DNA of 64,000 nt, from the IMG/VR virus record IMGVR_UViG_2799112330_000002, positions 160,001 through 224,000 of that record. One strand, given 5' to 3'. This document shows positions 6,336 through 58,884 of the stretch, piece after piece (the first letter of the stretch is position 1; every line of letters starts with the position of its first letter). The translations under genes were made by a program, and so were the position numbers. The notes under the pieces were generated by a model. The model saw only the letters and a program-made list of their open reading frames with translations, made no database searches and was not told the origin of the DNA. This DNA is from a virus. Lineage: Duplodnaviria; Heunggongvirae; Uroviricota; Caudoviricetes.

Positions 6336-7334
6336 ATGAAGAAATTCAGTAAATCAATAAATGAAGGATGTGTAACTGCCGATGTTAATCCAGGCAATGC
6401 ATATTCAAATACTGGTGTAATGAATCATCTTACTCCTGTTGGTAATATTGTGGCTCAAATAAGAAATTTGTTTGGCCCATTGACAGGAATTGTTGCATCT
6501 GTTGCAGAAGATGGTTTTTCAGTTAAGCTTAATTCTTCTAAGTTTGTGTCAAAAGAAGAAGTGAACAAGATCTTGTATGATATGACATCAATGAGAAATG
6601 TAAGTATTGATTCATTGATTAGACAAAGTGGTTTAAGTGTTCAAAAGCTTATTCCAATTGGTCAATATTTTGTTGTATATTATTCTCCCAATGACATAAA
6701 GGGAGCAAAGCCAGGAGTAGAACCTGAACCAGCTAATCTTCCATGTAGTGAAATGCGTACAATAGATGCTGAAGAAGTTGAAATGTTTGCATTCATTACA
6801 GAATCGGATGATGATGAAGAACTTAAAGACATCACAAAGGAAAAGATTAGTGAATTGATAAAAGCTAAAGACAAAGTAAAAGCAGCACAACAACTAGAAC
6901 TTTTGGTAACTCAAGAAATGGAACTTCCAAGAGAATACTATTTTGCTGGTGTAAAATCTAAAGATGGCGATGAGTCTATTGCTTTAAGATGGAAATATAC
7001 AAGAAAACGTCCTCATAACAAATCATCCGAATCTGTAAGATCATTGTTGAATATCTTTGATGATTCAGAAGAAGGCATATGGGTACAGGACTTTGTAAAA
7101 GACTCAATGTTCCAATTACCTGATGAAGTAAAGAAGCTTATTGAATCTGTTCTTGAATTCCTTGGCGCAGAGAAAACAAATGATCCTGCAATCTGGTCAT
7201 TGAAAAAATCTGAAAAGAAGGATGAAAAGAAAGATGATGACAAGAAAGAAGAGGACAAGAAATCAAACAAAGAAGAATCAGATGATGAAGATGACAGTTC
7301 AAGAGGAGATTCTTCAGATGATTTATTAGGATAA
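6336..7334 (+). CDS. putative internal head/prohead protein with capsid-targeting-like N-terminus
   Basis: Starts MKKFSKSINE; internal FITE; highly charged Lys/Asp/Glu C-terminus; TTATTTTTAAT motif at 6287-6297. Confidence 0.5.
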   Translation: MKKFSKSINEGCVTADVNPGNAYSNTGVMNHLTPVGNIVAQIRNLFGPLTGIVASVAEDGFSVKLNSSKFVSKEEVNKILYDMTSMRNVSIDSLIRQSGLSVQKLIPIGQYFVVYYSPNDIKGAKPGVEPEPANLPCSEMRTIDAEEVEMFAFITESDDDEELKDITKEKISELIKAKDKVKAAQQLELLVTQEMELPREYYFAGVKSKDGDESIALRWKYTRKRPHNKSSESVRSLLNIFDDSEEGIWVQDFVKDSMFQLPDEVKKLIESVLEFLGAEKTNDPAIWSLKKSEKKDEKKDDDKKEEDKKSNKEESDDEDDSSRGDSSDDLLG

Positions 7335-7372
7335 AATAACAAATAATCAAAATAAATAATAAAATAAAAGCA

Positions 7373-7592
7373 ACGATATGAAAGGGGTATTATACTTCTA
7401 GTGAGAAGTGATTGATATTCTATAAAATTATTTATATTATATCAGATACCCTTTATCGTATTTTAATTTTTCACTGGAAGGAAATTTTAATACGTATAAG
7501 AAAGTCGAATAAAAATCAATTTTTGAGGCAGAAAAATTGGGTATGATTTTTTGAAGACTAAATGCATATGTTGACCGAGAAGATGTCCAATA
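7373..7592 (+). ncRNA. candidate structured RNA / cis-regulatory leader upstream of the GH73 hydrolase
   Basis: Nested complementary arms: ACGATA-AAAGGGGTAT / ATACCCTTTATCGT enclosing ACTTCT/AGAAGT and TGATAT..TATAAA/TTTATA..ATATCA; second domain AGTC..AAAAATCA..AATTTTT/AAAAATT..TGATTTTT..GACT. Confidence 0.4.
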
Positions 7593-7601
7593 ATTATATG
7601 C

Positions 7602-8327
7602 ATGAAAAATAAAAATATCAAATACAATAATATGAGTAGAAAAATGAAATTTAAGAGAGTTTTATTATGCGCATTATTGATTTCATTACCTGTGTTATCA
7701 ATGACAAATGTGAATAAAGCTAAAATATATACAAATGGAATTGACAACAAACAGGTAACAATGTGTTATGATAAATATGATACTGCCAAGTTTGGAAAGA
7801 TAGATTCAATTCTTTTTGCTAAAGATAGTTTGAAGAAAGATTCTATATATAAGTCAATATTGAAGACCAGACAAGACAGTATCAAAGAAATCTTGATTGA
7901 TGAAGTTGACAAATATATGAGGAAAATAACTCCAAGATTCCATCAAAGTCTTCCTCGTGAATTTGTCAATCATTCTTTAGAATATGGTATTGATCTATCT
8001 TTTATGTTAGCTCAAACTCAACTAGAGACAATCTTTGGTACAGCAGGAGCAGGAAGAGAATCATCACGTAGATCTCTTTTTGGTGTAGCTGTCAGAAGAT
8101 ATTCATCATATCAAGAAGCAATCAATGACTATTGCAAACTGCTTAAGAAAAGCTATCTTGTAAAGGGAAGAACGGAACATCATCTTATGAAAAGATATAC
8201 TACTGGTTCTGGTGCAAGATATGCAAGTAATCCACATTATGAAGTTGAACTGTCAAGAACATACAACAACATCATACGGAATACTAATATAGATGAAATA
8301 CAAATGCAGATTCAGTCATTAGGATAA
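7602..8327 (+). CDS. GH73 glucosaminidase-family peptidoglycan hydrolase (candidate endolysin) with signal peptide; start may be 7632 or 7644
   Basis: LAQTQLET-FG (catalytic Glu), SLFGV, YSSYQEAINDY, RYASNPHYE (YATDP-like); N-terminal MKFKRVLLCALLISLPVLS. Confidence 0.8.
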   Translation: MKNKNIKYNNMSRKMKFKRVLLCALLISLPVLSMTNVNKAKIYTNGIDNKQVTMCYDKYDTAKFGKIDSILFAKDSLKKDSIYKSILKTRQDSIKEILIDEVDKYMRKITPRFHQSLPREFVNHSLEYGIDLSFMLAQTQLETIFGTAGAGRESSRRSLFGVAVRRYSSYQEAINDYCKLLKKSYLVKGRTEHHLMKRYTTGSGARYASNPHYEVELSRTYNNIIRNTNIDEIQMQIQSLG

Positions 8328-8350
8328 AAAATATATAGATGATTTAGATT

Positions 8351-9064
8351 ATGAATAGCTGGAAGTCTTACAAGTATATGTTCATACTTGGATTAGTTAG
8401 TTTCTTATTATTGATTTCTAATTTGTTTGCAATCAGACAATGCTCAAACAATGTTAGAAAGAATAATAACAATATCGTTGCTCTTACTGATTCTATCAAA
8501 TATCACAAGACTAAGGCTAATGAGCTATATGTTTCTAAGACATTATTAGAAGGTGATCTCAACACATTGAAGATTGCTAATGACAGTTTGTATAATGTTA
8601 TAAAAGACATGAAGGAGATAAAGCATCCATCATCTGTTGTATATATCAATCAAACTGTAGATAATGGAAAGAAAGATACTGCTTGGATCATTGAAAAAGA
8701 CACTTTAGTAAGATACCCAATTCTTACCAAAGAGTTCTCGTTTGACAATCAGTTTAGAGCATTGAATGGGAATGTCTTTCTTCAAGATTCTATTTTGGGT
8801 CTGAATATCAATAATGATAAGGTCTTCATGGATTATACAATTGCTATTGAGAAAAATCAAGTATTTGTAAAATCAAATAATCCTTATATCCAATTCAACA
8901 AGATACAAGGCATTACTATTCCAGAGCCACGAAGACGTCTGACTTCATTAGTGATAGGACCTTCTGTAGGTTATGGATATGATTTGCAAGAGAAGAGATT
9001 TGCTCCTTCTATCAATCTATCTGTAACTTACGGAATTGATTTAATTAACTTATTAAAAAAATAA
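8351..9064 (+). CDS. membrane-anchored coiled-coil protein with C-terminal beta-strands (candidate spanin-like lysis accessory)
   Basis: N-terminal TM helix followed by RQCS, coiled-coil region, C-terminal IGPSVGYGYD...SINLSVTYGI; directly after the hydrolase. Confidence 0.55.
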   Translation: MNSWKSYKYMFILGLVSFLLLISNLFAIRQCSNNVRKNNNNIVALTDSIKYHKTKANELYVSKTLLEGDLNTLKIANDSLYNVIKDMKEIKHPSSVVYINQTVDNGKKDTAWIIEKDTLVRYPILTKEFSFDNQFRALNGNVFLQDSILGLNINNDKVFMDYTIAIEKNQVFVKSNNPYIQFNKIQGITIPEPRRRLTSLVIGPSVGYGYDLQEKRFAPSINLSVTYGIDLINLLKK

Positions 9065-9108
9065 GAATAAACATAAAAATATTAAAAAATAAATAATATA
9101 TATAAATT

Positions 9109-9507
9109 ATGCAGATAACATCTAAATATAGTGAAAATGATAAGGTATGGTTCTATAATAATCATAAATATTATGAAGGTATAATAGTTGCAATAAGTAG
9201 TTGGAATGAAAATGATACTTTTATATATCGAATTCAACATAACAGTGCTAATGAATCATTTATGCTATATGTAAATGAACATGACATCTATGAATCAGAA
9301 TCAGATATTCCTCAACCTGAATTAATACATTATGAATTAATAGAACCAACAGATCCAATGGATGATATTACACCAGATCCAATTGATGATCCTACGCCAG
9401 ATTCAATTGATGATTCTAATACTCAAGATCCTAATGATCCAGTAGAGCCAATTGATGATCCTACACCAGATCCAGTAGATCCTGAAAATTCAATAGATCC
9501 TGAATAA
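9109..9507 (+). CDS. hypothetical protein with SH3/KOW-like N-terminus and Pro/Asp-rich repeats
   Basis: KYSENDKVWF...EGII; C-terminal PIDDPTPD repeats. Confidence 0.6.
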   Translation: MQITSKYSENDKVWFYNNHKYYEGIIVAISSWNENDTFIYRIQHNSANESFMLYVNEHDIYESESDIPQPELIHYELIEPTDPMDDITPDPIDDPTPDSIDDSNTQDPNDPVEPIDDPTPDPVDPENSIDPE

Positions 9508-13466: not shown

Positions 13467-14123
13467 TTAAATAACCGCCCCCCCGTAATTATAATACATT
13501 GTTGAATTACTATTATTAGATGTATAAGTCATCTTTATTATAGGTATATCTGTAGCAGAAGAGTTTGACATATTACCATGATACCGTAGAGTTATAGCTC
13601 CTCTATAATATGGACCTAATGAAAATTGTCCTTGTGAATAGAAGAGCCCATTCTTTGGATTCATTTCATAATAATCTGTACTATTTGTATTTAATGGCTC
13701 TCGATTAAATGGATATAAATACAAACCACCAGCCTCAAAAATATTACCAAACCTATCAGCTCCTGAACTAGAGTCATCAATTGATAATCCTCCTGTATTA
13801 TCTATATAGATATCAGCATCAATAAAACCTTGTGTCTGGAATGCGGTATCTCGCCAAGAATATAATTCTCCATCTTTTATTAATATATTCTTGCTACTAT
13901 CATAAAAATCACTAGTACTTAGTGGATCACCAGTATGATGGCAAACAAAAAAATGAACTTCATTTATTCCAGTAAAATCAGCTTCATTAGCTTCAAAATA
14001 TTTTCTTGGTATATATCTGTTAGAATCTGCAGAAACTTTAAATACTTTATTTGAAACTCCAGTATAATTTGTCATTATTCTACCAATATCACTACCGGTT
14101 AAATATTTATCTGTTATTGCCAT
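13467..14123 (-). CDS. N-terminal part of a tail-fibre-associated protein, ending just after a G7 tract
   Basis: Overlaps the tail fibre stop; ends TAC GGG GGG GCG GTT ATT TAA. Confidence 0.75.
   Translation of the reverse strand: MAITDKYLTGSDIGRIMTNYTGVSNKVFKVSADSNRYIPRKYFEANEADFTGINEVHFFVCHHTGDPLSTSDFYDSSKNILIKDGELYSWRDTAFQTQGFIDADIYIDNTGGLSIDDSSSGADRFGNIFEAGGLYLYPFNREPLNTNSTDYYEMNPKNGLFYSQGQFSLGPYYRGAITLRYHGNMSNSSATDIPIIKMTYTSNNSNSTMYYNYGGAVI
13478..13484 (-). repeat. G7 homopolymer at a frame junction (candidate contingency locus or frameshift site)
   Basis: CCCCCCC on the + strand; adding one G fuses the two ORFs into a 541-aa protein. Confidence 0.8.
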
Positions 14124-17100
14124 ATATTAATGTTTCTAAATAACTAATTTTCTTATCTTGTTCTTTTACCTTTTCAATTAATGCACCTACTAATTTAGAT
14201 AATGCTGAATTATAGTTAACTGAATATGTATAACTTTCATAACTATAGTCTACTGCTTCAGGTATAACATATGATAGTTCTTGAGCAATAAAACCTGTAG
14301 CATGCTTATTAGAAGAAATCCAGTCAAATTCTTTTACAATGTTAGAATAAGAACTAAATATATTATTTATGAATTCATCAGATATTGGTTTTATGTTTTT
14401 CTTCAATTTCTTATCTGATGCTGAATATACATCATTACCCTTAAAATATGGTGCACCAGCATAAATAGATAGAATTGTACCTGAACTTGAACCTTGACTT
14501 GTGCTACCTAATAAATAATATTGGGTACTTGATGAAGCCGTTATAATATATATTTGATCTGCTTCAGATGCCAGTCCATTAAAATAATTTGCAGTAATTG
14601 TACCTGTTGATGGATTTGCTTTAATACTAGAACAAAAACGAGTTTCATCAGTAATTGTTGCAGTTGCAGTTGTATACTTGAACAACATTGGATAATTATA
14701 GTTTCCTGTTGTTTGCCATTGTTTTACTTTAGGCGGGATCCAAGCAAATGTTCCAGCTGTATATGATAGCATATATGAACTATTTGCATCATTTTTGGCT
14801 GGTGCTGTTATAAAGCCTGTTGCACCTGCGCCTGTTTGATATAATAATTGATTCTTAGCACCTCCTGATATATTTGTAGCATTTGTAGCATTTGTTGCAT
14901 TTGTTGCATTAACTGCATTAGTAGCACTTGTAGCAGATGAAGCTAAAGCATCTAAAGTACAATTTAATGTTCCCGTTAAGTTAACTGTATTAGAACCAAT
15001 TGTAGTTGTTGTTGGTAATGCAGTAGCACCTGCAGAAGTAGATGAATATAGATTAAAATAATTATATCCATTACCACCCCATGAGCCTCCATCAATAAAC
15101 TTAAATGCTAATGAATTATATCGGCCGGTTAATTTTGCCCATACTTCAAATGTCACAGAATCAGATCCATTAAAGTATAATAGTTTAAAATTATCTAATG
15201 GTAATCCACTTGAAAGCGCATGGAATTTTATAGCAGACGCAGCATATTGATTAGAACTACTATTACATTGTACATATAATATTCCTGATATAGTTGATTG
15301 TCTTCCACATGATACATGTAATTTTATCCATCTATAATTAGTTCCTGTTAAGTTAATATCTGCAATCTTATAATAATCATCTGCAGCTGCAGTAGAATTA
15401 TATACTACTGAATATAATTTAGTCACTGTTGGCACTCCACTGGATAAATATATAGGCTGTACACTATTACCAACAGAAGCTGTTCCAAGTTTAGTTGCAG
15501 TTGTAGCAGTACCTAAGAATGATGGGGCTGTAATGCTTCCCTTAACCCATAGATTACCAGTATTAGAGCTTAACTCCATCATATTTGAGATAGCTGAACC
15601 AGCAGCATTAGCAGAGCTTTCCCATATCCATCCATAACCAGCAGCATTTTCTATAATACTTCTCATAGCCCATGATGTTACAACTGTTCCAGCTGGATGT
15701 GCCGCACCACCAGGAGACTTATCTTTATTAGACATATATTCAATCCATGTGTTATATGCTCTATTATAGAAATGTATACCATACGATGTTTTATGATATT
15801 GAGTATCTAAATATAATGCTCCTCTTATATAGCTATTGCCATTTACATCTAATGTTTCTGCTGGTACACGTATTCCTACACCAAGTTTTGGATTAATTGA
15901 AACTCCTTGTCCTGCATTTACTAAATCAATATATACTTCATCACCACCTCCAGAGGTATTATTACTAATACGCATATCTAATGATTCATTACCAGAAGTT
16001 GCCGCTGAACCTATTCTAAAATTAACAGAATCATTATATGCACGTGTTATTTGAATTGGCCATTGAGTAGCATTACCTCCAAATATTCCAGTATAAGCAT
16101 AGACATTCTTCCATTTTAATGTAGATGATCCAATATTATAAGTATTATTTATTGCTGGTGTAATAGAATTATAGTTATCAAATACAGTTTTCCATACTCC
16201 CCATGTTCCACTGCTTTGACCTCTTATTTGCATCATTCTACCAGATGCATTTGCAGATGTTGGTAAGAAAAGCTGAGCATCCCATCCAGCATTATTATCC
16301 CAGTTAAAATGTAATATATGACCATCAGACAATGGCTTATTAGAAGTTGTAGAACTAGTTACTTTAAATGATATTATACTTCCATCTCCTAATGTTGTCT
16401 TATTAATATCTGTTGTTGAGTATCGATCTTCATATAAACTTAGTTTTGTAGCATTGGTTGCATTAGCAGCATTATAATTAACAGCAGGATTTTCTTTTGT
16501 TATTTCTACGGTTCCACTTAATGTTGTTTCAAGACCAATTTCCCATCCATTATTCCATTTATCATAATCATCTCCACCATGTCCAACATGAATATCTTTT
16601 AGCCAAACTCTTACATAAGACCATGCAGTATTAGTTTCTCCAATCCAGACAATATTTCTTGTACCTCCACTATCATGACCAAATCTAACTGTTAAATTTC
16701 CATAATCATTCAAGTCATCTCTTAGTGAATATACACTAGTATTTTTCCATAGACCATCAGTATATACATATCCATTAATATGATATGTTGAAGATCTTGA
16801 GGTGACATAATTATATATTTCAACAGTAAACTTCATCATTGTTGCTTGTTTATATCCAGTAATTGGAAGTTTAATAGCAATTGCACCACTACCACTATTT
16901 GGTCCTTTAAAATAATGGGCATTTGGATAAACAACCGTATGATTATCTCCGACACTTAATGCATATGAAGTTCCTTCAACATGAGATGTACCAGTTACAT
17001 ATAGATTATATGATGGTGTTGTTCCTGTATCTATAGCAGTATTAACATAAAGTGATTGTTTTTTCATTTGTACTGTTGGTACTTCAATTGCAGAACTATA

Positions 17101-40357: not shown

Positions 40358-40978
40358 TTACTTTGTTTGTGAGTGCCAGCGTTTAGGCCATTTTGTCTTA
40401 TCTTTTTCAACTGGGCAATTCTTTACCATGAGACATTGATCTGCGGATGGATCAATATTCCATTTATAAAGACTATGGTTGAATGGAGTATCTTTAAACA
40501 TCATAGAAAAGTATTTAACATTCTTTACATTCCAGTTAGAAACATCTCCATTGAATTCTGATTGTGTAAACATAAATGACATTTCTTCAACATTACTTAC
40601 ATCCCATAAAGATATATCTTGATTAAACTTTGTACCATTAAACATACCAAACATATTTTTTACATTTGAAACATCCCACATAGAGAGATCTCCGTTGAAT
40701 TCGGAATTAAAAAACATGCAACGCATAGATTTAACTTTACTTACATCCCATAAAGATATATCTCCATTAAATTTAGAATAATAAAATACTTCATCCATAT
40801 CTGTTATTTTTGAAGTATCTATATCATTAAGATCAGCATTATTGCCTCTTTCTTTAATTAATTCTTTTACTAATTTTATTAATTCATCTTTTGTTTCTGG
40901 ATGATAGTTATATTTAGACTTAAGATTGTCTTTTGATAGCCTGAATTTCTCTATTATGAACTGACTTAGTTTCTTCAT
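40358..40978 (-). CDS. DUF285 / BspA-family 22-aa repeat protein, copy 3
   Basis: DLNDIDTSKITDM followed by FNGDISxWDVSNVxxMxxMF repeats; starts MKKLSQFIIE (ATG 40978). Confidence 0.9.
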   Translation of the reverse strand: MKKLSQFIIEKFRLSKDNLKSKYNYHPETKDELIKLVKELIKERGNNADLNDIDTSKITDMDEVFYYSKFNGDISLWDVSKVKSMRCMFFNSEFNGDLSMWDVSNVKNMFGMFNGTKFNQDISLWDVSNVEEMSFMFTQSEFNGDVSNWNVKNVKYFSMMFKDTPFNHSLYKWNIDPSADQCLMVKNCPVEKDKTKWPKRWHSQTK

Positions 40979-42164: not shown

Positions 42165-43079
42165 TTATATTGTATTTGTATTGAAGAAGTAATCAGCGCT
42201 ATGATTTTTCTGAACCCATTCTTCTATTTTTTGTATTTCTTCAGAAGCCATATCTGAAAATCTTGAATAGTTGATTGTTACTCCGCCGGGCATACGGAAT
42301 TCAAATGCACCCATAATAGTAGACATACTTCTAAGTCCAAATGCAACACATAGTCTAAAGAAATAATAGTTCTTATATAAATCTTGTATCTTACATCTTA
42401 TAAATGTTTGTAATACCACATCTGATGGTCCAAGATCTCCCATTATTACTAAATCATTAGAGAATTCATTATAGTTGAAAGTTACAGGAACATCAAATAC
42501 AGATTTGAATGTACTGATTTCATAAAGTCCAGCAACCATGTCTGTCAATCTGTATCCTGAACCGTCTCCATAAGTGTCTGTCAAAGTACCGCCAGCACCA
42601 GATGCTAATATAGTATTGTTTATTACCATACGTTCTAGTGAAAAGTCTGACATTGCTCCATAATAATAGTTTGGATTTACTTTATATACACCAAAAACAC
42701 TAAGTACTTGTGGAGGTAGTTTGACAGTTGTATTATTGCATTTCCTACAAAAGTCTCTGTTTCGTACAACAAAATATCTTTCTTCAATACAGAAATCACA
42801 ATTCTGCCAAAACCATTGGGCCGCTTGAATAATAAGTGGGGGAATAGATGCTGCTGGAATAGGAAGAGGCAAAGCGCATGATTGAGTCAATTCCTGAATA
42901 ATTCTCTGAATGAACTGATAATCAATCTGATCTTCCTGCTTTTGTCTAAGCTTCAAATAATCCTGCATTGATGTTGTTTGTGTAACTGGCTGATTTCCAT
43001 TTGGATTTGTTCCAGAATTGTTTTGTGTAGGATCAATTGTTATATTGTTTATTCTATCTTGAACTGTATTACAAGCCAT
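42165..43079 (-). CDS. neck / head-tail adaptor protein (T4 gp13-like)
   Basis: IIQAAQWFWQN, KLPPQVLSVFGV, C-terminal FRMPGGVTINY..A.EEI characteristic of gp13. Confidence 0.75.
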   Translation of the reverse strand: MACNTVQDRINNITIDPTQNNSGTNPNGNQPVTQTTSMQDYLKLRQKQEDQIDYQFIQRIIQELTQSCALPLPIPAASIPPLIIQAAQWFWQNCDFCIEERYFVVRNRDFCRKCNNTTVKLPPQVLSVFGVYKVNPNYYYGAMSDFSLERMVINNTILASGAGGTLTDTYGDGSGYRLTDMVAGLYEISTFKSVFDVPVTFNYNEFSNDLVIMGDLGPSDVVLQTFIRCKIQDLYKNYYFFRLCVAFGLRSMSTIMGAFEFRMPGGVTINYSRFSDMASEEIQKIEEWVQKNHSADYFFNTNTI

Positions 43080-43284
43080 TTCTTAACTATTATTGATATA
43101 TATATTAAAAATAAAAAAGTTAGTATTAAAAATAGGTAAAAAAATTATACGTTCCCAATTGAAAACAGCACGAATCTTAAACTATTTTTATATTAATTAA
43201 ATATTTATTAACGATTATTTGGCAGATTATTGAGCAATTTTCTCACTTCTATTATTTAAAAATATGTGTATGTGTAAGAAATAA

Positions 43285-49738: not shown

Positions 49739-49897
49739 ATGATCTGTCAAAACAAAGAAACAAAAATCAAATATAATTTCAAAGAGCAAGCTGACAAGAA
49801 AATAAAGCTATGGAATAACCTTACAAAAAGAAAATTTGTTTCATTGGATGAATTTAATGAAAATTATAACATTATTGATAAATTTCTGTCACTTTAA
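49739..49897 (+). CDS. 52-aa hypothetical protein (not in the ORF track)
   Basis: MICQNKETKIKYNFKEQADKKIKLWNNLTKRKFVSLDEFNENYNIIDKFLSL fills the gap; TATTTTTAA at 49707. Confidence 0.45.
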   Translation: MICQNKETKIKYNFKEQADKKIKLWNNLTKRKFVSLDEFNENYNIIDKFLSL

Positions 49898-49954
49898 TAC
49901 TATATTATAATTAACTTAGAATATTAATGTTTAATCAATAAAGTTTAATTATTT

Positions 49955-50425: not shown

Positions 50426-50444
50426 ATATTTTATAATAAATATT

Positions 50445-50657
50445 ATGGGTAAATTATTTCATGACATTATTACAGAAGAGCCAGTTGATGGTGAGTACTA
50501 TTATCTTTTTACAAAGTTTGGAGCATTAATTGGTGAAGGAGAATGGGAAGCAGATAATCAAGACTTTTATAACAATCAGGATGACATTACTTTCTTGCCT
50601 GAGAATATTGATTATTTTATGAGTGTACCGAGTAAAGAACAACTTAAATCATTATAA
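50445..50657 (+). CDS. hypothetical protein
   Basis: 70-aa ORF in the operon. Confidence 0.6.
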   Translation: MGKLFHDIITEEPVDGEYYYLFTKFGALIGEGEWEADNQDFYNNQDDITFLPENIDYFMSVPSKEQLKSL

Positions 50658-50660
50658 AAT

Positions 50661-51290
50661 ATGAATAAAGAAACAACTTATTATGTTAATCATGCAGTAG
50701 ATGTCTCTGAGGACGCTACTTATTCACTTATTGACAAAGGACTTAACAATGCCGCTACATTGGTAATTAAAGAAGGCATTTCTACTATCTATTTTGAATC
50801 TGGTAAGCCTGAGCAAGTATTTTCCGAATTCAATGATGTAATTAATTTTGTTGAAGATGAAGGTTGGACATTTGTAAAACTTCTATCAGGAAACAAGAGA
50901 TGGAAAGAATATAATCCTAATCCCAAGGAACGAAATATTGGAGATTGTACTCTTCGTTCTTATTGCGCAGCATTTGACATTACTTGGGATCAGGCATTTG
51001 ATATTGCTTCACAGGTAGCCAAAGAGAATTCTACGCTTATCCAATATGTGGCAGACAAGGTTCTATTGGAATCATTCAATTGTGTAGTTGATGCGACATA
51101 TAACAAGAAGAGTGTAAAAGGCAAGGATAGGATTACAGTAAATGAATTTGCTATGACTCATCCTTATGGTACATATATTCTTCATATGCGTTCTCATCAG
51201 GTTACAGTAATTGATGGTTTGTATTGGGATAGCTGGGATTGTGGAGACAAGAAAATTGATACAGTTTATTTGCCTCCAAAGAAGAAGTAA
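50661..51290 (+). CDS. phage protein with papain-like Cys-His-Asp signature
   Basis: NPNPKERNIGDCTLR...GTYILHMRSHQVTVIDG.YWDSWD. Confidence 0.6.
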   Translation: MNKETTYYVNHAVDVSEDATYSLIDKGLNNAATLVIKEGISTIYFESGKPEQVFSEFNDVINFVEDEGWTFVKLLSGNKRWKEYNPNPKERNIGDCTLRSYCAAFDITWDQAFDIASQVAKENSTLIQYVADKVLLESFNCVVDATYNKKSVKGKDRITVNEFAMTHPYGTYILHMRSHQVTVIDGLYWDSWDCGDKKIDTVYLPPKKK

Positions 51291-51293
51291 TAC

Positions 51294-51545
51294 ATGAATA
51301 ATAGATATGAATCTATGGGAGAGCATATACGAAACAAGCTCTCCCATTATGAAATGCTATTGACATTAATAAAAGATCTTAAGAAATCTGAACATAATAT
51401 AGAACAGTTCAATAAGACAAAGAACTTGTTGTATAATGCTGTATCAATTGAACCTCTTGAAGAACTTGTTAGAATATCTAAAATGAATGAAATAGAATCA
51501 ATTAAATGGATTAGAAAACAATATGATAGGAAAACCAAAGTTTAA
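51294..51545 (+). CDS. hypothetical protein
   Basis: 83-aa ORF in the operon. Confidence 0.55.
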   Translation: MNNRYESMGEHIRNKLSHYEMLLTLIKDLKKSEHNIEQFNKTKNLLYNAVSIEPLEELVRISKMNEIESIKWIRKQYDRKTKV

Positions 51546-52083
51546 TTACGGAGATATTGTTGCATTTCAACTTAAAGATGGGAAATATAAGGGAGAAATC
51601 CATATCATAGATAAATACGGTACATTTGATAATTCTAATGAGCCATCTTATGATATTTTAGTTAAAGATGCTTATAAAGAAGGCGATAGTTATTATAAAC
51701 CAAATGGGAATAATGACTGTTTGTTTAAACATATTTCGGAACATATGATTATAACTAAAAAGATTTATATTAGTCTTCCAATTAAGATTGATGAGAAGAC
51801 AGTTGCAAAACGATTTAAAGAAGCAAAAGAATATATTTCTAAGCTACCTTCATTAAAAGATTATGTTGTTGTTGGACCAATTAATATCAATGACTTTGAT
51901 GATACTGGACTTACAGCTAAAAGAGATCATGACTATGCTTGGTATATGGGAGAAGACATCAAGGAACTGTTGAGAGCTGATGCTATCTTTATGGGAGCTG
52001 GTTGGGAGAAATCTGAAGGATGCCGTTGTGAGTTGGCTACTGCGAAGATCTATAATAAACAAATAATCTATCAACACCGTTAA
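51523..52083 (+). CDS. SH3/KOW-like domain fused to DUF4406 (nucleoside deoxyribosyltransferase-like)
   Basis: PKFNYGDIVAF N-domain; KIYISLPI...DIKELLRADAIFMGAGWEKSEGCRCELATA. Confidence 0.75.
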   Translation: MIGKPKFNYGDIVAFQLKDGKYKGEIHIIDKYGTFDNSNEPSYDILVKDAYKEGDSYYKPNGNNDCLFKHISEHMIITKKIYISLPIKIDEKTVAKRFKEAKEYISKLPSLKDYVVVGPININDFDDTGLTAKRDHDYAWYMGEDIKELLRADAIFMGAGWEKSEGCRCELATAKIYNKQIIYQHR

Positions 52084-52087
52084 TATT

Positions 52088-52453
52088 ATGATTTATTCTA
52101 TTGATGACTTATGTTCTGTATCTTATGATAATGAACAAATTGAAGATGTATCAAAAAATTTATTGAATTCATTGGTTGTTGGTATGTTTCGTTATGCTAA
52201 GATAGACAATCTTGCTGATAATGAAATAATTGAACTTATTAGGAAAGATAATGAATGGTTCAACAAATATTATTGGACAACTGCTCAAAGAGTTAGATTC
52301 ATCAAAAAACTAAACCAAGTGTTTTCAAACTTATATAATTTCGGCCCAAATAAATGTCAGAACTCATCAATTGAATGGATAATGAAATACGGGTTGAAAA
52401 ACAAAGAATTTAAAAAGCCAATCAATAGAAAACAAAAAACTTCTAAGAAATAG
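52088..52453 (+). CDS. hypothetical protein
   Basis: 121-aa ORF. Confidence 0.6.
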   Translation: MIYSIDDLCSVSYDNEQIEDVSKNLLNSLVVGMFRYAKIDNLADNEIIELIRKDNEWFNKYYWTTAQRVRFIKKLNQVFSNLYNFGPNKCQNSSIEWIMKYGLKNKEFKKPINRKQKTSKK

Positions 52454-52516
52454 ATTGAATTGATTTGGTGTTGTTGTCTATTTTATATATAACCACAAAA
52501 ATATCTTAGTTTAATT

Positions 52517-53143
52517 GTGGAAATATTTATCGGAATAGACCAATCAATAAATTCAACAGGAATCACTATACAAAAATTTGAGAATAATCAACTTGTTAAA
52601 GAAAATTTCTATATAATTACAGGGAAAGTTTCAAAGAAAGCATTAAGTATTTCTCAATCATTAAATAATTTTGATTATATTTTATACAATAAGCTTGAAA
52701 AATCAGATTCAAAAAACAATAATGAATTTGAATTTTTCAAGCTTATGAACATTGTATCTATAACTGATATAATCTTAGACCTTATTGATCATTCTTGTGA
52801 AAGCAGTTTAGACAAAATCTATATAGCAATGGAGGGAATTTCTTATTCTTCTTCCCAAACAAAATCATTAATTGATTTGTCTGGGCTTTCATATGTATTA
52901 AGATATAGAATAAACAATTTCTTCAAATCACATCAAGATCAATGTGGAGGATTGTATATATTTACTCCTGGTGAAATAAAGAAATTTGCTACTGGAAATG
53001 GAAATGCAAATAAAGATATGATGGTAAACTTGTTTAAGAACCTTAAGAATGATTTAAAAGTGTTACCAAAAATTGATGATATAGCGGATTCTTTTTGGAT
53101 TTGTGCTTATATACAGAATATTCACACAGATATACTTCTGTGA
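52517..53143 (+). CDS. ruvC: RuvC-like Holliday junction resolvase
   Basis: IGIDQSINSTG, IAMEG, PGEIKKFATGNGNANKDMM, DDIADS. Confidence 0.85.
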   Translation: MEIFIGIDQSINSTGITIQKFENNQLVKENFYIITGKVSKKALSISQSLNNFDYILYNKLEKSDSKNNNEFEFFKLMNIVSITDIILDLIDHSCESSLDKIYIAMEGISYSSSQTKSLIDLSGLSYVLRYRINNFFKSHQDQCGGLYIFTPGEIKKFATGNGNANKDMMVNLFKNLKNDLKVLPKIDDIADSFWICAYIQNIHTDILL

Positions 53144-53216
53144 CACCCTACTCATCTCAAATTAAAAATCAATTAAATTATATATACACAAGAAAATATA
53201 TTAGTAGAGATCATTT

Positions 53217-54206
53217 ATGATGAAAAAAATTATAATAATGGTAATGTCATGCAACAAAGATGTCTTTATAGATGAAGAACAGGCAGTTAGAGAAACATGG
53301 CTAAAAGATGTTATAGATGGCAAATATGAAAACATTGACTATATGATCTACAGAGGTGATGAAGACTTGTTGAATCATAAATATGAAAAAGACAAGCATT
53401 TATTGTCATTACGTTGTGAAGATGACTATGATCATACATTCAAGAAATCTTATTATGCTTTCTATTTATTGAAGAAGATCTTTGGTGAATATGACTATGT
53501 ATTCAAGACAAATACTTCAACATATGTAAATGTACCATTACTTAATCAGTTCATTCAAGAATTAGACAATGATGATGACTATTATTCTTCAGATGTCTAT
53601 TCATTAAGTAATATTGCCGCACCAGCTCCATTAGATCTATATGGGAGAGGAAATGGACTTATCTTAAGTAAGAAGCATATTGATACTATAATAACAGAAG
53701 GGATTAGTTTCTTATATATAACAAATGGACCGGATGATGCTTACATTTCAAACATATTGAATAGCTATTGGATAAAGAAAAAAGAAAATTATATAGATCA
53801 TATCAAGTCATTTGCTCATGGATGGTATAGATGCATTCCAACAAATCATGACTTCAAACATCAGTTATGTACATTTGGAAATACTAATATTGATTGGGAA
53901 TTCTTAAGGAAATTCATAACAGTTCAAATAAAGATATATCATCAAGACAGATCAAATGAGAAAGAAAAGCATTATGAACTTCATAAGATATTCCAAGAGA
54001 ATAGATATGACAAAGAAGAACTTAATAGACAAACAGAATTCAATAAAGAATATTCTAAAAACTATTCAGTATTCATTGGTTCCATTCTTGGATATATTGA
54101 CTTTGATAATTGGAAAACTATTGATAAACTGAATCTTTATATATTAGAACAAAATAATAAAGCTACCGATGATGTAGCGTATGGAATAAAGAACAAATGG
54201 CTATAA
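53217..54206 (+). CDS. putative GT-A glycosyltransferase (GT31-like), paralogue of 5342..6232
   Basis: IMVMSC..VRETW, TFKK, YDYVFKTNTSTYVN, RGNGLIL, PDD. Confidence 0.65.
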   Translation: MMKKIIIMVMSCNKDVFIDEEQAVRETWLKDVIDGKYENIDYMIYRGDEDLLNHKYEKDKHLLSLRCEDDYDHTFKKSYYAFYLLKKIFGEYDYVFKTNTSTYVNVPLLNQFIQELDNDDDYYSSDVYSLSNIAAPAPLDLYGRGNGLILSKKHIDTIITEGISFLYITNGPDDAYISNILNSYWIKKKENYIDHIKSFAHGWYRCIPTNHDFKHQLCTFGNTNIDWEFLRKFITVQIKIYHQDRSNEKEKHYELHKIFQENRYDKEELNRQTEFNKEYSKNYSVFIGSILGYIDFDNWKTIDKLNLYILEQNNKATDDVAYGIKNKWL

Positions 54207-55625: not shown

Positions 55626-56273
55626 TTATAAAATATTGTTTAATTCTTCTTTATTAAATAAAACATTAATTGTCTTATAGAATAATTCTGTTAAATGTTC
55701 TTTGTTATCATAATCATATTTGTCATTAAACCATTGATCATAATCAGAATCTTCTAATAATTTATCAATAACATTTAATCTATTACTGTTATCAACATGC
55801 TTTATCATACCTAACCCATATTCATTAAAGAATAATAAATAAATATTTTCTTTATTAATATATTCAGGTAGTTTGACTAAAGATTTCCAAACATCTCCAC
55901 ACCATTCTCCAGTATTTGTCTTTGTAGCAATTCTTTTGTTTTTAGGAAAACAATCATGAAATACTATTACACCACCTTTATTTAAATGTTTTAATGAATT
56001 GACAATATCCTTATCAACCTGATCTTCATGATGTAAGCCATCTATAAATATAATATCATACATTTTGTCTGCAGGCATTTGAGCAAACATCTCATCAGAT
56101 GTCATATGATATGTCAAATTGTTTATGCGCTTATTAGGATCACAACATTCTTTATTTTGTATATTAATAGCATTAAATGTAGCCCCAGTATCTGTTCCTA
56201 TTTCAAGATATGATTGATAGTTCTTTAGTTTAATGATATAGTTTATTGTGTCCCTTTGATGAATTTTTCCCAT
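55626..56273 (-). CDS. class I SAM-dependent methyltransferase (Methyltransf_24-like)
   Basis: YLEIGTDTG, YDIIFIDGLHH, LNKGGVIVFHDC, WCGDVWK. Confidence 0.85.
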   Translation of the reverse strand: MGKIHQRDTINYIIKLKNYQSYLEIGTDTGATFNAINIQNKECCDPNKRINNLTYHMTSDEMFAQMPADKMYDIIFIDGLHHEDQVDKDIVNSLKHLNKGGVIVFHDCFPKNKRIATKTNTGEWCGDVWKSLVKLPEYINKENIYLLFFNEYGLGMIKHVDNSNRLNVIDKLLEDSDYDQWFNDKYDYDNKEHLTELFYKTINVLFNKEELNNIL

Positions 56274-56305: not shown

Positions 56306-57529
56306 TTAATCCCATCCTCCTGAATAAAAAGTAGATGCTACTGTTATATCAGTGAAAGTTTCATGGAATATTTCTTCATCATCCTTTTTACATATAACTT
56401 CAAAATCATGATTATAATAAGTAGAGAATGATGATGCATGAACAGAACTTGTCTTACTTCCATCTTTTGATGAACCTTTATCGGTTATGATGAATTTCAA
56501 ATGATCTGCATCATCAAGGAAACCTTCTAATGTTTCATCTGATACGTCACCTTTAATGTTAGCCTTTTGTTCAACATCTGCATAGTATGAATCATCATTA
56601 TCATTCATATACATTGAATGCCAAACTTCAAACCCATAAAGCTGATTAATTACTTTAAGTATTAAACCAACAATTGCAGTTCCTTCACAGCTGCTATCAT
56701 TTGATCCTTGATAATATCTTCTGTTATGATTTGCTTTATATTCATCTTTCAATATATCAAGTAATGATCCCTTCTTTCCATTATATTCACAATATTCAAT
56801 AATTGACTTAATATGGTTTTCAACACCTATAGCAAATGTTGGGCGAGCTTTCATAATAGAATTCTTTACTCCCTTTATAGCTTTCTTTGCATCTTCTATA
56901 TTTACTGGATCTGCCAAGAATGCTCTTAGTTCCTCACGTTCACTATATGTAAGATTATTCCCAGGTTTTAGATAAGAAACTAATCTTGCTGGTTCATTCA
57001 ACATTGCTGTAATTACAGAATCATCTTTTGGATAATAAGGGTTCCAGCATCTAGTGGGATCAATCTGTTTAGCAAGAAACTTGATGTCATGCCATTTTGC
57101 CTGATTGATTTTATTTGAATATTCTTCCCACCATTTAATTAAGTCATCTTTAGTAAACTTACCATCTTCTAATTGCTGAAGAATAAATTCTCCATACGCT
57201 TCATTATCAATCACAGTTTCTTTTTCACCTTTTCTATAAGACCATTTAACTAGTTCTTTTGGAGTATAACCTGCGTTATCAATAAGAATTTGCATTGGAT
57301 ATTTAGCTAACTTTTCTGCAGGACCTTTACCGGGTCTTTCATTCAAAGGTTTGTTTTTTGCTAATTTATTCTTTCTTGATTTATCAGCTTTATCATAATC
57401 AGCAAATATTTTCTCTAATTCACGTTTAAAATATCTTGTTGATTCTGTTCCCCAAGCTTCATTAACAACCGAAACTTGTCCTAAAGATATATTAATAGAT
57501 TCATTAATTTGATCTTTTAATTTTTTCAT
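56306..57529 (-). CDS. putative internal virion protein with capsid-targeting-like tag
   Basis: Starts MKKLKDQINE; second site VVNE|AWG. Confidence 0.55.
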   Translation of the reverse strand: MKKLKDQINESINISLGQVSVVNEAWGTESTRYFKRELEKIFADYDKADKSRKNKLAKNKPLNERPGKGPAEKLAKYPMQILIDNAGYTPKELVKWSYRKGEKETVIDNEAYGEFILQQLEDGKFTKDDLIKWWEEYSNKINQAKWHDIKFLAKQIDPTRCWNPYYPKDDSVITAMLNEPARLVSYLKPGNNLTYSEREELRAFLADPVNIEDAKKAIKGVKNSIMKARPTFAIGVENHIKSIIEYCEYNGKKGSLLDILKDEYKANHNRRYYQGSNDSSCEGTAIVGLILKVINQLYGFEVWHSMYMNDNDDSYYADVEQKANIKGDVSDETLEGFLDDADHLKFIITDKGSSKDGSKTSSVHASSFSTYYNHDFEVICKKDDEEIFHETFTDITVASTFYSGGWD

Positions 57530-57551
57530 ATTTATATTTTATTATTATTTT

Positions 57552-58250
57552 TTACATTTTCCAACCCATTTTAGCTCCAATAGCAGCCATGACAAGACGG
57601 GATGTTATAAGATTGCCAAATGTTCCTTTAGGATCTACACCAAGAGCATTACATATAGCATTTCCAAGCTTAGGTCCAAAGGCTGTTCCAAGAATAGCAC
57701 CACCAATAGCTCCTAATATGCCTTCATCAATAGGAATATTGTTTTCTTTAGCTTCTTGTAGTTTTTGAATAAGTGAATCATAATTAAGATCTTCTGTTAT
57801 CTCTGGAGATTCCTTTTCCATATTCAATAACATATAGTTTTCATATAACTTCTTGTAGTTCATACCATATCTTCTTATTTTCTCCTTGTCATCATCATTG
57901 ATATTTTCAAAAGAATATAATGGAAGATCATTAGCTAAAAACATCATATTATTATATAATGAAGGATTATCAAAAATGTCATTTATGTCATTCAGTTCTT
58001 CACAATATTTTGCAAATTGTATCAGACTTTCATTATGTTCTTCAGTCAATATGATCTTCTTTCCATTGACGTCAAATTCATATACAATAACAGAAGGATC
58101 ATGCTTACTATTTTCTTCTTTCACATAATCTTTTAATAGTCCTTCATATAATATCTTATCATTGACAGATATTCTACAATTGCATTCTAACAATTTTTCA
58201 TATATATTAGAATTCTTTTCTTTCAATTCTTTTATATTATTCATTTTCAA
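57552..58250 (-). CDS. putative virion protein with C-terminal glycine-zipper hydrophobic segment
   Basis: ...PIDE|GILGAIGGAILGTAFGPKLG...RLVMAAIGAKMGWKM. Confidence 0.6.
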   Translation of the reverse strand: MKMNNIKELKEKNSNIYEKLLECNCRISVNDKILYEGLLKDYVKEENSKHDPSVIVYEFDVNGKKIILTEEHNESLIQFAKYCEELNDINDIFDNPSLYNNMMFLANDLPLYSFENINDDDKEKIRRYGMNYKKLYENYMLLNMEKESPEITEDLNYDSLIQKLQEAKENNIPIDEGILGAIGGAILGTAFGPKLGNAICNALGVDPKGTFGNLITSRLVMAAIGAKMGWKM

Positions 58251-58662
58251 TCTGTGCTTTGATATTTTTATATGTATCTATTGAAGTAATAGGATAGAAT
58301 TGTCTGTCAAAGAAAATACCGATAACTGACAATGGTAATATTCCTTCATCATTTGCAAAATTATAGTTAGCAATTGTACCTTGTACACCTGTTTCACTAT
58401 CTAATAATACATTAAAGAATTTTTGTCTTACCCATGTCAGGTTTCTTACTTTTTCTTTGTTTTGAATGTCTAATTCTATTCCTGAAGATGCAACTAAGAA
58501 CATTGGTTCTCTTGACCAACTAAACTTGTTAGAATCCCAATTTTCTGTTCTCTTCAATATAGCATCAACAATATCACCATCATTCTTAAGTTCTTTCAAT
58601 ATCTTCTTTCCTAATGATGATAGATCCTGTGATTCAGTAATAAAAGTGTCTAATGATTTCAT
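58237..58662 (-). CDS. putative internal virion protein with capsid-targeting-like tag
   Basis: Starts MKSLDTFITE. Confidence 0.6.
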   Translation of the reverse strand: MKSLDTFITESQDLSSLGKKILKELKNDGDIVDAILKRTENWDSNKFSWSREPMFLVASSGIELDIQNKEKVRNLTWVRQKFFNVLLDSETGVQGTIANYNFANDEGILPLSVIGIFFDRQFYPITSIDTYKNIKAQIENE

Positions 58663-58713
58663 ATATCTATATCTATAAATTGTAAATCAATATTTAATAA
58701 AAATAACAATTTA

Positions 58714-58884
58714 TTAAAAACTATGTTTTTTTGTCTTTTTCTTTTTTTGTTTTGTTTTTATTGTACCAACAGGTATGTCTCCTGAGCCAACAGCTTCTCC
58801 ATTTGGCGCTGCAACATCTCCCATTCCTGGAGTATTAGCAGGTGTAGCAAATTGGCATTCTATATAATAACGTAATGATTTCAT
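58714..58884 (-). CDS. 56-aa putative internal head peptide with a basic tail (not in the ORF track)
   Basis: MKSLRYYIECQFATPANTPGMGDVAAPNGEAVGSGDIPVGTIKTKQKKKKTKKHSF; ATG 3 nt after the gp6-like stop. Confidence 0.7.
   Translation of the reverse strand: MKSLRYYIECQFATPANTPGMGDVAAPNGEAVGSGDIPVGTIKTKQKKKKTKKHSF

Follow-up and report, generated by a model that had tools for sequence, protein, structure and literature searches.

Tagged genes in the window

The stretch of DNA analysed here (the window, 64 kb) lies within a 410,106-bp contig of an uncultured phage with 518 ORFs; other contigs of the same assembly (1,487 ORFs, ~26% GC and AT-rich like the phage) served as controls. The original prediction was that eight proteins of the window, from six families, share an N-terminal tag, and all eight N-termini are found in place with the sequences given for them (Table 1). 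Their bodies are unrelated apart from a DUF285 trio, as had been claimed, with no BLAST relation after the first 20 residues are dropped. The six families likewise hold up, comprising the three DUF285 paralogues, one nucleoside diphosphate kinase (NDK) and four proteins that fall into no Pfam or PHROG family.

Table 1. Tagged genes, neighbouring untagged genes and promoter motifs, in window coordinates
Feature	Position	Strand	Remarks
Class-A (late-type) promoter motif	6287..6296	+	TTATTTTTAA; 49 nt upstream of the 6336 gene
Tagged 332-aa protein, fold without known match	6336..7334	+	Leader MKKFSKSINE (6336-6365)
Tagged nucleoside diphosphate kinase, 135 aa	39928..40335	-	Degenerate leader MKKFTEHIKE
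Tagged DUF285 paralogue, 206 aa from ATG 40978	40358..40978	-	MKKLSQFIIE; 17.2 bits (second ATG)
Tagged DUF285 paralogue, 200 aa	40996..41598	-	Leader MKKLNQFIIE; tag 18.0 bits
Tagged DUF285 paralogue, 174 aa	41631..42155	-	MKKLNQFITE, then KFRLSRDN; PF03382 140 bits; tag 20.7 bits
Untagged gene, 304 aa, first of operon	42165..43079	-	Weak PHROG match, head-tail adaptor Ad2 (phrog_211, E = 4.4e-8)
Class-A promoter motif	43105..43114	-	Heads operon 43079 to 39928
Tagged 407-aa protein, fold without known match	56306..57529	-	Leader MKKLKDQINE; 8.8 bits
Tagged 141-aa protein, no assigned function	58237..58662	-	Canonical leader MKSLDTFITE; 18.6 bits
Class-A promoter motif	58697..58706	-	TTATTTTTAT; 44 nt upstream of the 58662 gene
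56-aa ORF, 9-residue variant leader	58714..58884	-	MKSLRYYIE; borderline
Untagged baseplate wedge subunit	58888..60567	-	phrog_219, E = 1.9e-21
Class-A promoter motif	62761..62770	-	Heads baseplate operon 62734 to 58714

The three DUF285 copies score 140–167 bits against a Pfam cut-off of 25 (PF03382). For the copy starting at 40978, the longest ORF begins two codons upstream, at 40984 (MYMKK...). The NDK (PF00334, 56.2 bits, cut-off 27) contains the active-site His motif NGMHSSDS, which we take to be the catalytic His motif of the NDK family. The position of the untagged baseplate wedge gene places the tagged genes next to it in a late structural operon.

The 332-aa protein has a family of 518 homologues, most of its orthologues starting with MK[KR]FSxY[IVL]NE; in a 50-sequence alignment, E10 is invariant, and M1, K2 and F4 are at least 90% conserved. 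Its predicted mature start is GCVTADVNP. The family of the 407-aa protein (82 homologues) carries a second site, VNE(24), before AWG, and E24 is invariant in the alignment. In the AF2 models of these two proteins, the first 28–31 residues are disordered and stand apart from the folded bodies. Specifically, pLDDT is below 50 over residues 1–28 of the 332-aa protein and over residues 1–31 of the 407-aa protein, for which the mean pLDDT is 81. A PDB fold search with the 332-aa protein and a fold search with the 407-aa protein gave no match.

The tags at 6336, 40335 and 57529 are weak, having no aromatic residue at position 7 (6.3, 7.4 and 8.8 bits, respectively). At most one control protein reaches each of these scores, and orthologues of these proteins elsewhere are mostly canonical in the tag; for instance, the NDK orthologue in one relative (G004), 55% identical, starts with MKSLTNYICE. 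The variant tag at 58884 scores 5.4 bits, and 2 of the 1,487 control ORFs score as high. The nine-residue spacing of this leader is the norm in phage PAU.

Prevalence and conservation of the leader

The leader M-K-x-[LI]-x-x-[YF]-[IL]-x-E opens 94–96 of the 518 ORFs on the phage contig and one of the 1,487 control ORFs. On a position-specific score, 94 phage ORFs and one control ORF attain 6 bits or more, and the narrower pattern of the original prediction matches 50 phage ORFs and no control ORF. Overall, the proteome-wide scan gives ~140-fold enrichment over the control contigs. The [IL]-x-E element alone occupies residues 8–10 in 94/518 phage ORFs versus 18/1,487 controls, and the core motif begins at residue 2 in 79 proteins and at other places nine times (~124,600 positions).

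The tagged set amounts to ~96 proteins (18% of genes) in ~50 families, a scale that the eight proteins and six families first proposed had understated. It consists of 45 DUF285 paralogues and ~50 unrelated families, some of which are enzymes (NDK, NUDIX, HAD and P-loop); some 45 families have no assigned function. Clustering of the bodies by BLAST groups 103 candidates into 60 clusters, of which the DUF285 cluster has 43 members and nearly all the rest are singletons, the ~50 tag-bearing families being mutually unrelated. All 45 DUF285 leucine-rich-repeat (LRR) copies on the contig are tagged, and in the protein database DUF285 bodies exist both with and without the leader. The tagged proteins are small (61–430 aa), soluble and mostly acidic, and sum to 18,458 residues at one copy each.

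Among 42 proteins, one representative per family, information is high at positions 2–4, 7, 8 and 10; beyond residue 11 it is at the background level. The most conserved positions are 4 (L20/I18/F4), 7 (Y30/F12), 8 (I34/L8) and 10, and conservation ends at residue 10–11. Synonymous codons at the conserved positions track genome-wide usage: Glu10 is encoded by GAA in 33 and GAG in 9 cases, versus 82 and 18% genome-wide, and Ser3 by TCA, AGT, TCT and TCC. A search for conserved bases upstream of tagged genes found none. Codon use at genome-wide levels, mixed Ser3 codons and the lack of upstream conservation indicate that selection acts on the tag peptide, not on the DNA.

Promoter class of tagged genes

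The original prediction tied the tag to operons headed by class-A promoters, to the exclusion of class B. The association is borne out across the contig: 67 tagged genes belong to class-A (TTATTTTTAW) units and 5 to those of the second class (Fisher P = 3e-16), with transcription units assigned crudely and the promoter classes serving as motif-based proxies for timing. In the window, nine of ten copies of the class-A motif are followed after 30–70 nt by a start codon on the correct strand. The class-A motif is likewise found at the head of the protease, capsid, sheath, tube, fibre and baseplate genes.

Head-assembly genes on the contig

A gp21-like protease, to which the original prediction had pointed, is encoded on the contig. 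It matches Peptidase_S77 (PF03420, 46.8 bits, cut-off 27) and the head maturation protease family phrog_207 (E = 1.5e-41), and its GELEHP and SSRAAGS segments align with the catalytic His and Ser motifs of T4 gp21; a single-sequence search against PDB sequences gave no match. Its own N-terminus ends in V-F-E(10), the T4 counterpart being LIE(9). Beyond the protease domain, the polypeptide continues with an acidic linker and a scaffold-like tail that bears repeats. This C-terminal part contains eight tandem 12-residue repeats, each ending in W-[IV]-x-E, a motif present there at 1.59 per 100 aa versus 0.26 genome-wide. The tail is presumably the scaffold, and the homologue in pT24 is annotated 'prohead core scaffold'.

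The adjoining gene encodes a gp23-type capsid protein (PF07068, 96.7 bits), in whose N-terminal region L-T-E(17) and IHEIHE(41) are conserved. An uninterrupted run of ~25 tagged genes immediately precedes the protease gene. The tagged genes of the window, by contrast, sit within tail-fibre and baseplate operons, away from the head cluster, which counts against a head-targeting function.

The leader in related phages

With its 410 kb, the phage belongs to the PAU/pT24/Lak-related clade, which infects Bacteroidota, and its capsid protein is ~31–36% identical to those of the named phages. Relatives at 57–59% capsid identity contain 5–20 exact DNA-pattern matches, versus none in reversed controls. 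In relatives, the tag is retained on the orthologues of three families (the NDK, the HAD protein and one of 166 aa), and it is kept in orthologues at 55–72% identity. Each related lineage has its own version of the tag and a gp21-type protease. We found no description of a ~96-protein tag system in such a phage, and no proteomic, cleavage or packaging reports for phages of this clade, in the searchable papers.

A candidate capsid-targeting system

We consider it likely that the leader is a greatly expanded capsid targeting sequence (CTS) of the T4 type, acting as a removable propeptide. Since it is the same ten-residue tag that T4 uses for head loading, it probably marks cargo packed in the capsid and delivered with the DNA. 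The enrichment, the promoter association, the gp21-family protease and the match to the T4 positions support the reading of a portable head-loading tag already put forward in the original prediction.

Tagged genes would be transcribed from the single-element promoter common to head, tail and baseplate genes. The leader would then dock the new protein on the scaffolding core of the assembling prohead, a core that would include the protease-scaffold fusion with its eight W-[IV]-x-E repeats, and the gp23-type shell would close around it. The gp21-family serine protease would cut after Glu10, releasing the cargo from the core, and would chop the scaffold at its repeats. After DNA packaging, the freed proteins would be kept in the head and exit with the DNA at infection. 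We infer docking, cleavage, head retention and ejection by analogy with T4.

An assembly function has several points in its favour. The three tagged genes immediately upstream of it take the position of T4 genes 67 and 68, one of the three has stacked sites (YISE(10), YIHE(23) and ILE(30)), the scaffold tail of the protease shows the same aromatic-[IV]-x-E motif, and the annotated PAU scaffold has the PAU tag. The tag could accordingly mark core or scaffold proteins that build or size a very large prohead; like T4 gp22, gp67 and gp68, they would be broken down or expelled through the action of the protease and would not enter the host. As an account of the whole set this is unlikely: most tagged proteins are folded and globular, including the 45 LRR proteins, the tagged NDK, NUDIX and HAD enzymes have intact catalytic motifs, and in T4 itself the proteins with a CTS remain inside the head and are injected (PMC3012670). 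Moreover, the cleavage-like motif is, if anything, scarcer in tagged bodies than in untagged proteins: with paralogues removed, [FYW][ILV]xE occurs internally 12 times versus 15.4 in shuffled sequences (P = 0.03 in the comparison with untagged proteins). The avoidance is then no more than marginal, a point against the capsid-targeting reading. A few tagged proteins beside the protease gene may nevertheless be core proteins like T4 gp67 and gp68, and more generally part of the tagged set may encode core proteins, be silent or use the tag in another way.

The last residues of the tag form the cleavage motif of a protease that the phage itself encodes, the conserved positions coincide with those that have a function in the T4 CTS, the largest tag array adjoins the protease and capsid genes, and every related lineage pairs its own tag version with a gp21-type protease. 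These features make it quite improbable that the leader is a handle for other machinery, such as a modifying enzyme, a chaperone or sorting to another compartment, with a convergent likeness to T4. In favour of such a handle, the tagged NDK, NUDIX, HAD and P-loop proteins could equally assemble in a cytoplasmic complex. The contig has radical-SAM-like genes at three places (123, 357 and 359 kb), none of them linked to the tag arrays, which speaks against a modifying enzyme of this type. We regard as very remote a third explanation, in which the shared start has no peptide function and is a nucleic-acid or translational signal (a RegA-like repressor operator or a translation enhancer) or the relic of one ancestral start that duplication and recombination have spread. 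MKK starts are common in AT-rich genomes, and the many tandem paralogues attest to rampant duplication, but third codon positions vary as they do genome-wide, Ser3 is encoded by both TCN and AGY, and upstream sequence is not conserved. Furthermore, the tag is found on ~50 families unrelated by BLAST, is kept in orthologues of 55–72% identity and has an invariant E10 in a 50-sequence family. Untagged structural genes have the same promoter class, so the tag is not a general feature of late genes.

Two further points count against the capsid-targeting reading: to our knowledge, 96 cargo species would be far above any documented case, and we know of no reason for a capsid location of ordinary nucleotide-metabolism enzymes, which several of the cargo candidates are. 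In a bolder form of this reading, nearly one-fifth of the genes might encode injected cargo, with the 45 DUF285 proteins forming a diversified set of ready-made binders or decoys against host factors and the enzymes rewiring or destroying nucleotide pools or signals before any phage transcription, a combination that we regard as possible yet doubtful. If it is true, the 'ejectome' of uncultured jumbo phages could be deduced directly from sequence by means of a ten-residue motif. If the capsid-targeting reading holds, it provides an inexpensive way to predict from sequence which proteins are brought into the cell by jumbo phages; the carried proteins would be the first to act in host take-over and anti-defence, dozens of uncharacterised proteins would become candidates for anti-defence tests, and new short packaging tags would be available for engineering Bacteroidota phages.

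Comparison with known systems

Sphingomonas (Sphingobacterium) phage PAU (JQ362498) is a cultured jumbo relative with a 32% identical capsid protein. The exact pattern MK[TS][LI]xxL[YF]E occurs genome-wide on 18 of its genes, among them the scaffold gene and two genes annotated 'internal capsid protein' in GenBank. Specifically, PAU gp142-146, 149, 150 and 152-154, annotated as internal capsid proteins and scaffold, share a leader with a hydrophobic-aromatic-Glu end, and many of the tagged genes are small and lie around the portal, protease, scaffold and capsid genes. The PAU tag has nine residues (MKTLTQLYE), compared with ten here, and PAU has separate protease and scaffold genes, whereas the protease of our phage is fused to the scaffold-like tail. 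No paper describing the PAU tag was found in the searchable literature. Because PAU is cultured and has 18 tagged genes, the idea is directly testable.

In phiKZ, 201phi2-1 and SPN3US, inner-body or ejection proteins are processed by the gp175/gp245 proteases (PMC5694885, PMC7411985). These too are giant phages. Their heads contain many internal proteins, some in paralogue families; a gp21-related protease cleaves these proteins after Glu, and the propeptides are thought to direct them to the prohead. Unlike the ten-residue leader, however, the propeptides are mostly longer than 100 residues, the motif is S/A-x-E, and the group is without a short portable leader common to dozens of families.

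The closest counterpart is T4. The T4 CTS is reportedly known since Mullaney and Black (1996). The leader MKTYQEFIAE, cited for IPIII in the original prediction, does start that protein and also IPII, and gp24 starts with MAKINELLRE. T4 carries the CTS on IPI, IPII and IPIII (and on Alt and gp24), where it is processed by gp21 (PMC9026906, PMC3012670, PMC9958956). Residues 4 and 7 of the T4 CTS govern targeting, residues 8 and 10 govern processing, and gp21 cleaves after L/I-x-E (PMC9026906); CTS-based loading of varied proteins in T4-like phages has already been proposed in reviews. Both phages have a ten-residue M-K leader with a hydrophobic or aromatic residue at positions 4 and 7, I/L8 and Glu10 forming a gp21 site, one leader on unrelated bodies, a protease of the gp21 family and a capsid protein of the gp23 type. 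In our phage, the promoter-motif proxy suggests that tagged and structural genes are co-regulated. They differ in that position 4 is L/I in our phage and Tyr in T4, in the fusion of the protease to an acidic linker and a scaffold-like tail, and in cargo candidates that include a 45-member DUF285 LRR family and nucleotide-metabolism enzymes. The T4 system has three internal proteins and a few other processed head proteins, whereas in our phage ~96 proteins carry the tag and are candidate cargo. The novelty lies in this scale and in the setting; the T4 CTS itself was already known.

The phage and its relatives

Contig C82, of which the window corresponds to bases 160,001–224,000, is a jumbo or 'mega' phage of 410,106 bp and 29% GC that was binned together with a 1.9-Mb assembly of ~26% GC. 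By capsid protein, the closest phages are uncultured 160–295-kb IMG/VR phages (57–59% identity), followed at 30–38% identity by the uncultured phage LR756500, PAU, Lak megaphages, the Tenacibaculum phages pT24 and PTm1, and the Chryseobacterium phage MA9V. The known hosts among these relatives are Bacteroidota; the host of PAU has been reclassified as Sphingobacterium (PMC3738902). When 9 kb of the window were compared by megablast with a set of 50,697 phage records, none matched, and by these comparisons the relatives of C82 are detectable at the protein level only. The coordinates of the main features are collected in the Table. The 2,865-aa protein is assigned as a tail fibre because of the Peptidase_S74 chaperone domain at its end. 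Elsewhere in the window, a 1,202-aa protein (43285–46893, +) carries a DEAD/ResIII helicase core at residues 440–579 with long flanks free of annotation.

Table. Features of contig C82 and of the window
Feature	Location	Strand	Remarks
T4 gp23-type capsid protein, gp21-type prohead protease, gp6-like baseplate wedge protein	C82
Prohead protease, 565 aa	contig 82,910–84,607		Peptidase_S77 above cut-off; PHROG 'head maturation protease'
Giant late gene, 2,865 aa	window 14107–22704	-	C-terminal Peptidase_S74 intramolecular chaperone domain
Giant late gene, 2,765 aa	window 24736–33033	-	no Pfam family
Giant late gene, 1,714 aa	window 34712–39856	-	no Pfam family
Tagged NDK	window 39928–40335	-
Tagged NUDIX hydrolase	contig 34,174–34,623
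Tagged HAD hydrolase	contig 70,778–71,422
Tagged protein	contig 8,397–9,320		weak, below-threshold P-loop ATPase matches
Ferritin/rubrerythrin-like protein	contig 239,407–240,078		leader MKKFQEFNSE
Class B motif example	window 48968–48976	+
Class B motif example	window 49899–49907	+

The tag recurs across the phage proteome

Each of the eight N-termini claimed by the original prediction to share a tag, MK[KS][LF]xxxIxE in seven of them and one residue shorter in the eighth, is present exactly as given. Across C82 the ten-residue tag reads M-K-x-[LI]-x-x-[YF]-[IL]-x-E. ORFs were called on the whole of C82 as longest ATG-started ORFs, taken greedily, yielding 518 genes at 91% coding density. Scanned across this proteome, as had been proposed, the regular expression of the original prediction matches 50 of the 518 genes, while a broader pattern, M..[LIFMV]..[FYW][ILV].E, matches 84 of 518 versus 2 of 1,487 ORFs on other, equally AT-rich contigs of the same assembly. 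A position-specific score, built with one representative per family and applied at a threshold of at least 6 bits, retrieves 94 of 518 phage ORFs versus 1 of the 1,487 control ORFs, a control rate that corresponds to ~0.35 false positives among the phage ORFs. If a start codon slightly further along (within the first few codons) is also accepted, the tagged genes number 96, or ~18% of C82 genes. The core motif is found at residue 2 in 79 proteins, with nine other occurrences in ~124,600 positions. BLAST clustering of the bodies minus their first 20 residues gives one DUF285 family of 43 and otherwise nearly all singletons; after start-codon correction, 45 of 45 DUF285-like genes on C82 are tagged. 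To our knowledge, so many tagged species in one phage are unprecedented.

The tag is conserved as a peptide

Positions 2, 3, 4, 7, 8 and 10 of the tag have high information content, which drops to background level beyond position 11. At the conserved positions, synonymous codon choice matches genome-wide usage (Glu10, GAA 33/GAG 9 against 82/18% genome-wide; Ile8, ATT 19/ATA 15; Ser3, TCA, AGT, TCT and TCC), and no bases upstream of the ATG are conserved in tagged genes, indicating that selection acts on the peptide and not on DNA or RNA.

Three of the window tags (6336, 40335 and 57529) are weak, with no aromatic residue at position 7; each is nonetheless equalled in score by at most one control ORF, and most orthologues of the three proteins have the full form. 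Specifically, the NDK of a relative, 55% identical, starts with MKSLTNYICE, and the family of the 332-aa protein (gene 6336–7334, +) has the consensus MK[KR]FSxY[IVL]NE followed by GC, with E10 invariant and M1, K2 and F4 at least 90% conserved in an alignment of 50 sequences. The family of the 407-aa protein (gene 56306–57529, -) has MKxLxE[KY]xNE and a second, invariant Glu24 within I/V-N-E, followed by AWG. The nine-residue tag at 58884 is borderline, at 5.4 bits.

The tagged proteins are small, acidic and diverse

Tagged proteins are 61–430 aa long, and 11% of untagged ORFs exceed 460 aa. Their median pI is 5.2 versus 5.7 for untagged proteins, and a membrane-like segment is present in 1 of 96 tagged versus 27 of 422 untagged. 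AlphaFold models of two window proteins place the first 28–31 residues, which are unstructured, outside well-folded bodies. The 332-aa and 407-aa proteins were modelled with AF2, and Foldseek searches of the PDB with these models returned no convincing match (best E = 0.12 and 0.049); a wide VIA-align search with the 407-aa protein, whose gene is a member of a baseplate operon, reached a best Z of only 3.9. Pfam and PHROGs give no family for 4–5 of the eight window proteins, nor for most other tagged proteins. Internal [FYW][ILV]xE sites are depleted in tagged bodies (z = -2.2), but the significance is lost when the DUF285 paralogues are removed, and plain [IL]xE shows no depletion there.

Two DUF285 genes (contig 250947–251741 and 292831–293712) have tandem leaders, MKKLNQYISE and, after ~13 residues, YITEKFRL. 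In a relative, residue 315 of a 410-aa ORF (L039:8190–9422) is the position of a complete leader, MKSLNNYINE, and the C82 counterpart there is a separate tagged gene. Such tandem and internal leaders suggest possible cargo polyproteins jointed at protease sites. The DUF285 paralogues (e.g. window 40358–42155) have a second conserved stretch, KFRLSKDNL, between Glu10 and the body, which also occurs in four short non-DUF285 ORFs (contig 27106, 53741, 54197 and 256194) and reads ERLHINKD in relatives. Among the top 120 clusters of DUF285 bodies of the same subfamily in a large protein database, 35 have the leader, and some of the leaderless ones begin right at the body, YxYHPKTKxEL. The presence of these bodies with and without the leader would fit a portable module.

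The prohead protease resembles a protease–scaffold fusion

A gp21-like protease, the enzyme that the original prediction had proposed to look for, was located on C82. It was assigned from Pfam and PHROG profiles together with a manual T4 gp21 alignment, because a single-sequence query against PDB sequences found nothing. In a MAFFT alignment with T4 gp21, GELEHP and SSRAAGS of the protease lie opposite its His motif and its Ser motif. T4 gp21 cleaves itself at LIE(9), and the C82 protease has a similar N-terminal V-F-E at residue 10. An acidic Lys/Asp/Glu-rich linker is followed by a C-terminal half with eight tandem 12-residue repeats, EFAPEVQNW[IV]xE, whose closing motif, aromatic-[IV]-x-E, is also that of the tag; the density of aromatic-[ILV]-x-E is six times genomic. 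A repeat region of this kind would be expected of a scaffold chopped up at maturation, and by its layout the 565-aa protein looks like a protease–scaffold fusion.

The capsid gene directly follows, and its N-terminal region conserves L-T-E(17) and IHEIHE(41). Directly upstream of the protease, from 63.5 to 82.1 kb of the contig, stand ~25 consecutive small genes, nearly all of them tagged.

Tagged genes are enriched behind one promoter class

C82 has two classes of upstream motif, each 30–60 nt ahead of start codons. Class A, a single element, tttTTATTTTTAATTA, heads the genes for the protease, capsid and giant fibre as well as the sheath, tube and baseplate genes. In class B, which is sigma-70-like, TTGAAT and ACTATATTA form a pair separated by ~17 nt; this class heads blocks of small untagged genes (e.g. 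window 49015–54206) that are probably early genes. The class-A motif count in the AT-rich window is not enriched (10 versus 5.3 expected), the signal being one of position and orientation only.

When every gene is allotted to the closest same-strand motif upstream of it, tagged genes divide into 67 class A and 5 class B versus 135 and 178 for untagged genes (P = 3e-16), which bears out the anticipated enrichment; three of the five class-B tagged genes stand behind a gene bearing both motifs. All eight tagged genes of the window, located in tail operons, belong to class-A-headed operons, in agreement with the original prediction: 6336 has its own motif, four follow the Ad2-like gene (42165–43079; a weak PHROG match to head-tail adaptor Ad2), two follow the motif at 58697–58706, and one is last in the baseplate operon starting at 62734. 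The tag is not a general late-gene feature, because the structural genes of class-A units lack it. Within the baseplate and tagged-gene operon, a 215-aa protein (window 55626–56273, -) has PHROG matches to DNA methyltransferase.

Related leaders in other phages

The exact DNA tag pattern occurs in 5–7 genes in each of four 245–295-kb relatives and in 20 genes of a 158-kb fragment, and reversed-pattern controls gave zero matches. The tag is retained across diverged orthologue pairs (HAD, 72% identity; a 166-aa family, 59–68%; NDK, 55%). Exact tag patterns gave zero matches in Lak-A2 and two only in LR756500, both containing stop codons.

PAU (JQ362498) has a nine-residue leader, MK[TS][LI]xxL[YF]E, on 18 genes, e.g. 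at 106051–113735. These include gp142–146, 149, 150, 153 and 154 and the annotated scaffold gp152, which surround the portal, protease and capsid genes; gp142 and gp154 are annotated as 'internal capsid protein'. The C82 and PAU leader forms both occur near a gp21-type protease, and each lineage thus has its own version of the leader. No virion proteomics of PAU, pT24, PTm1 or MA9V was found in the literature searched; PAU is cultured and so is open to tests of the tag idea.

Interpretation and comparison with the T4 leader

By analogy with T4, the tag is probably a T4-type capsid targeting sequence (CTS), for which cleavage, packaging and ejection of the tagged proteins are predicted. An RNA-level signal or a relic is contradicted both by the codon data and by conservation of the tag in orthologues. 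A recognition handle for a modifying enzyme finds no support: C82 has three radical-SAM-like genes, none linked to tag arrays. A few genes beside the protease probably do encode core proteins and not cargo, but this reading does not fit the tagged enzymes and LRR proteins. Under the CTS reading, some of the tagged cargo could plausibly act against host defences, by analogy, as injected T4 IPI* blocks a restriction enzyme attacking sugar-modified hydroxymethylcytosine DNA (PMC3012670; PMC13326640).

In the T4 GenBank record, IPII and IPIII start with MKTYQEFIAE, gp24 with MAKINELLRE, and IPI with MKTFKEFTST, continuing to ITE(19); the leader of the C82 ferritin-like protein is closer to that of IPI than to the main tag. 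The first ten residues of IPIII are sufficient for packaging, with targeting depending most on residues 4 and 7 and processing on residues 8 and 10, and gp21 cleaves after L/I-x-E (PMC9026906). These functional positions, 4, 7, 8 and 10, are the most conserved positions of the C82 tag. The literature searched yielded no papers on such a tag on this scale or from the PAU/pT24/Lak-related clade; the CTS has been suggested earlier as an evolutionary device of T4-like phages (PMC9026906). The mechanism considered here is the known T4 one, and it is notable in C82 for its size, ~18% of genes.
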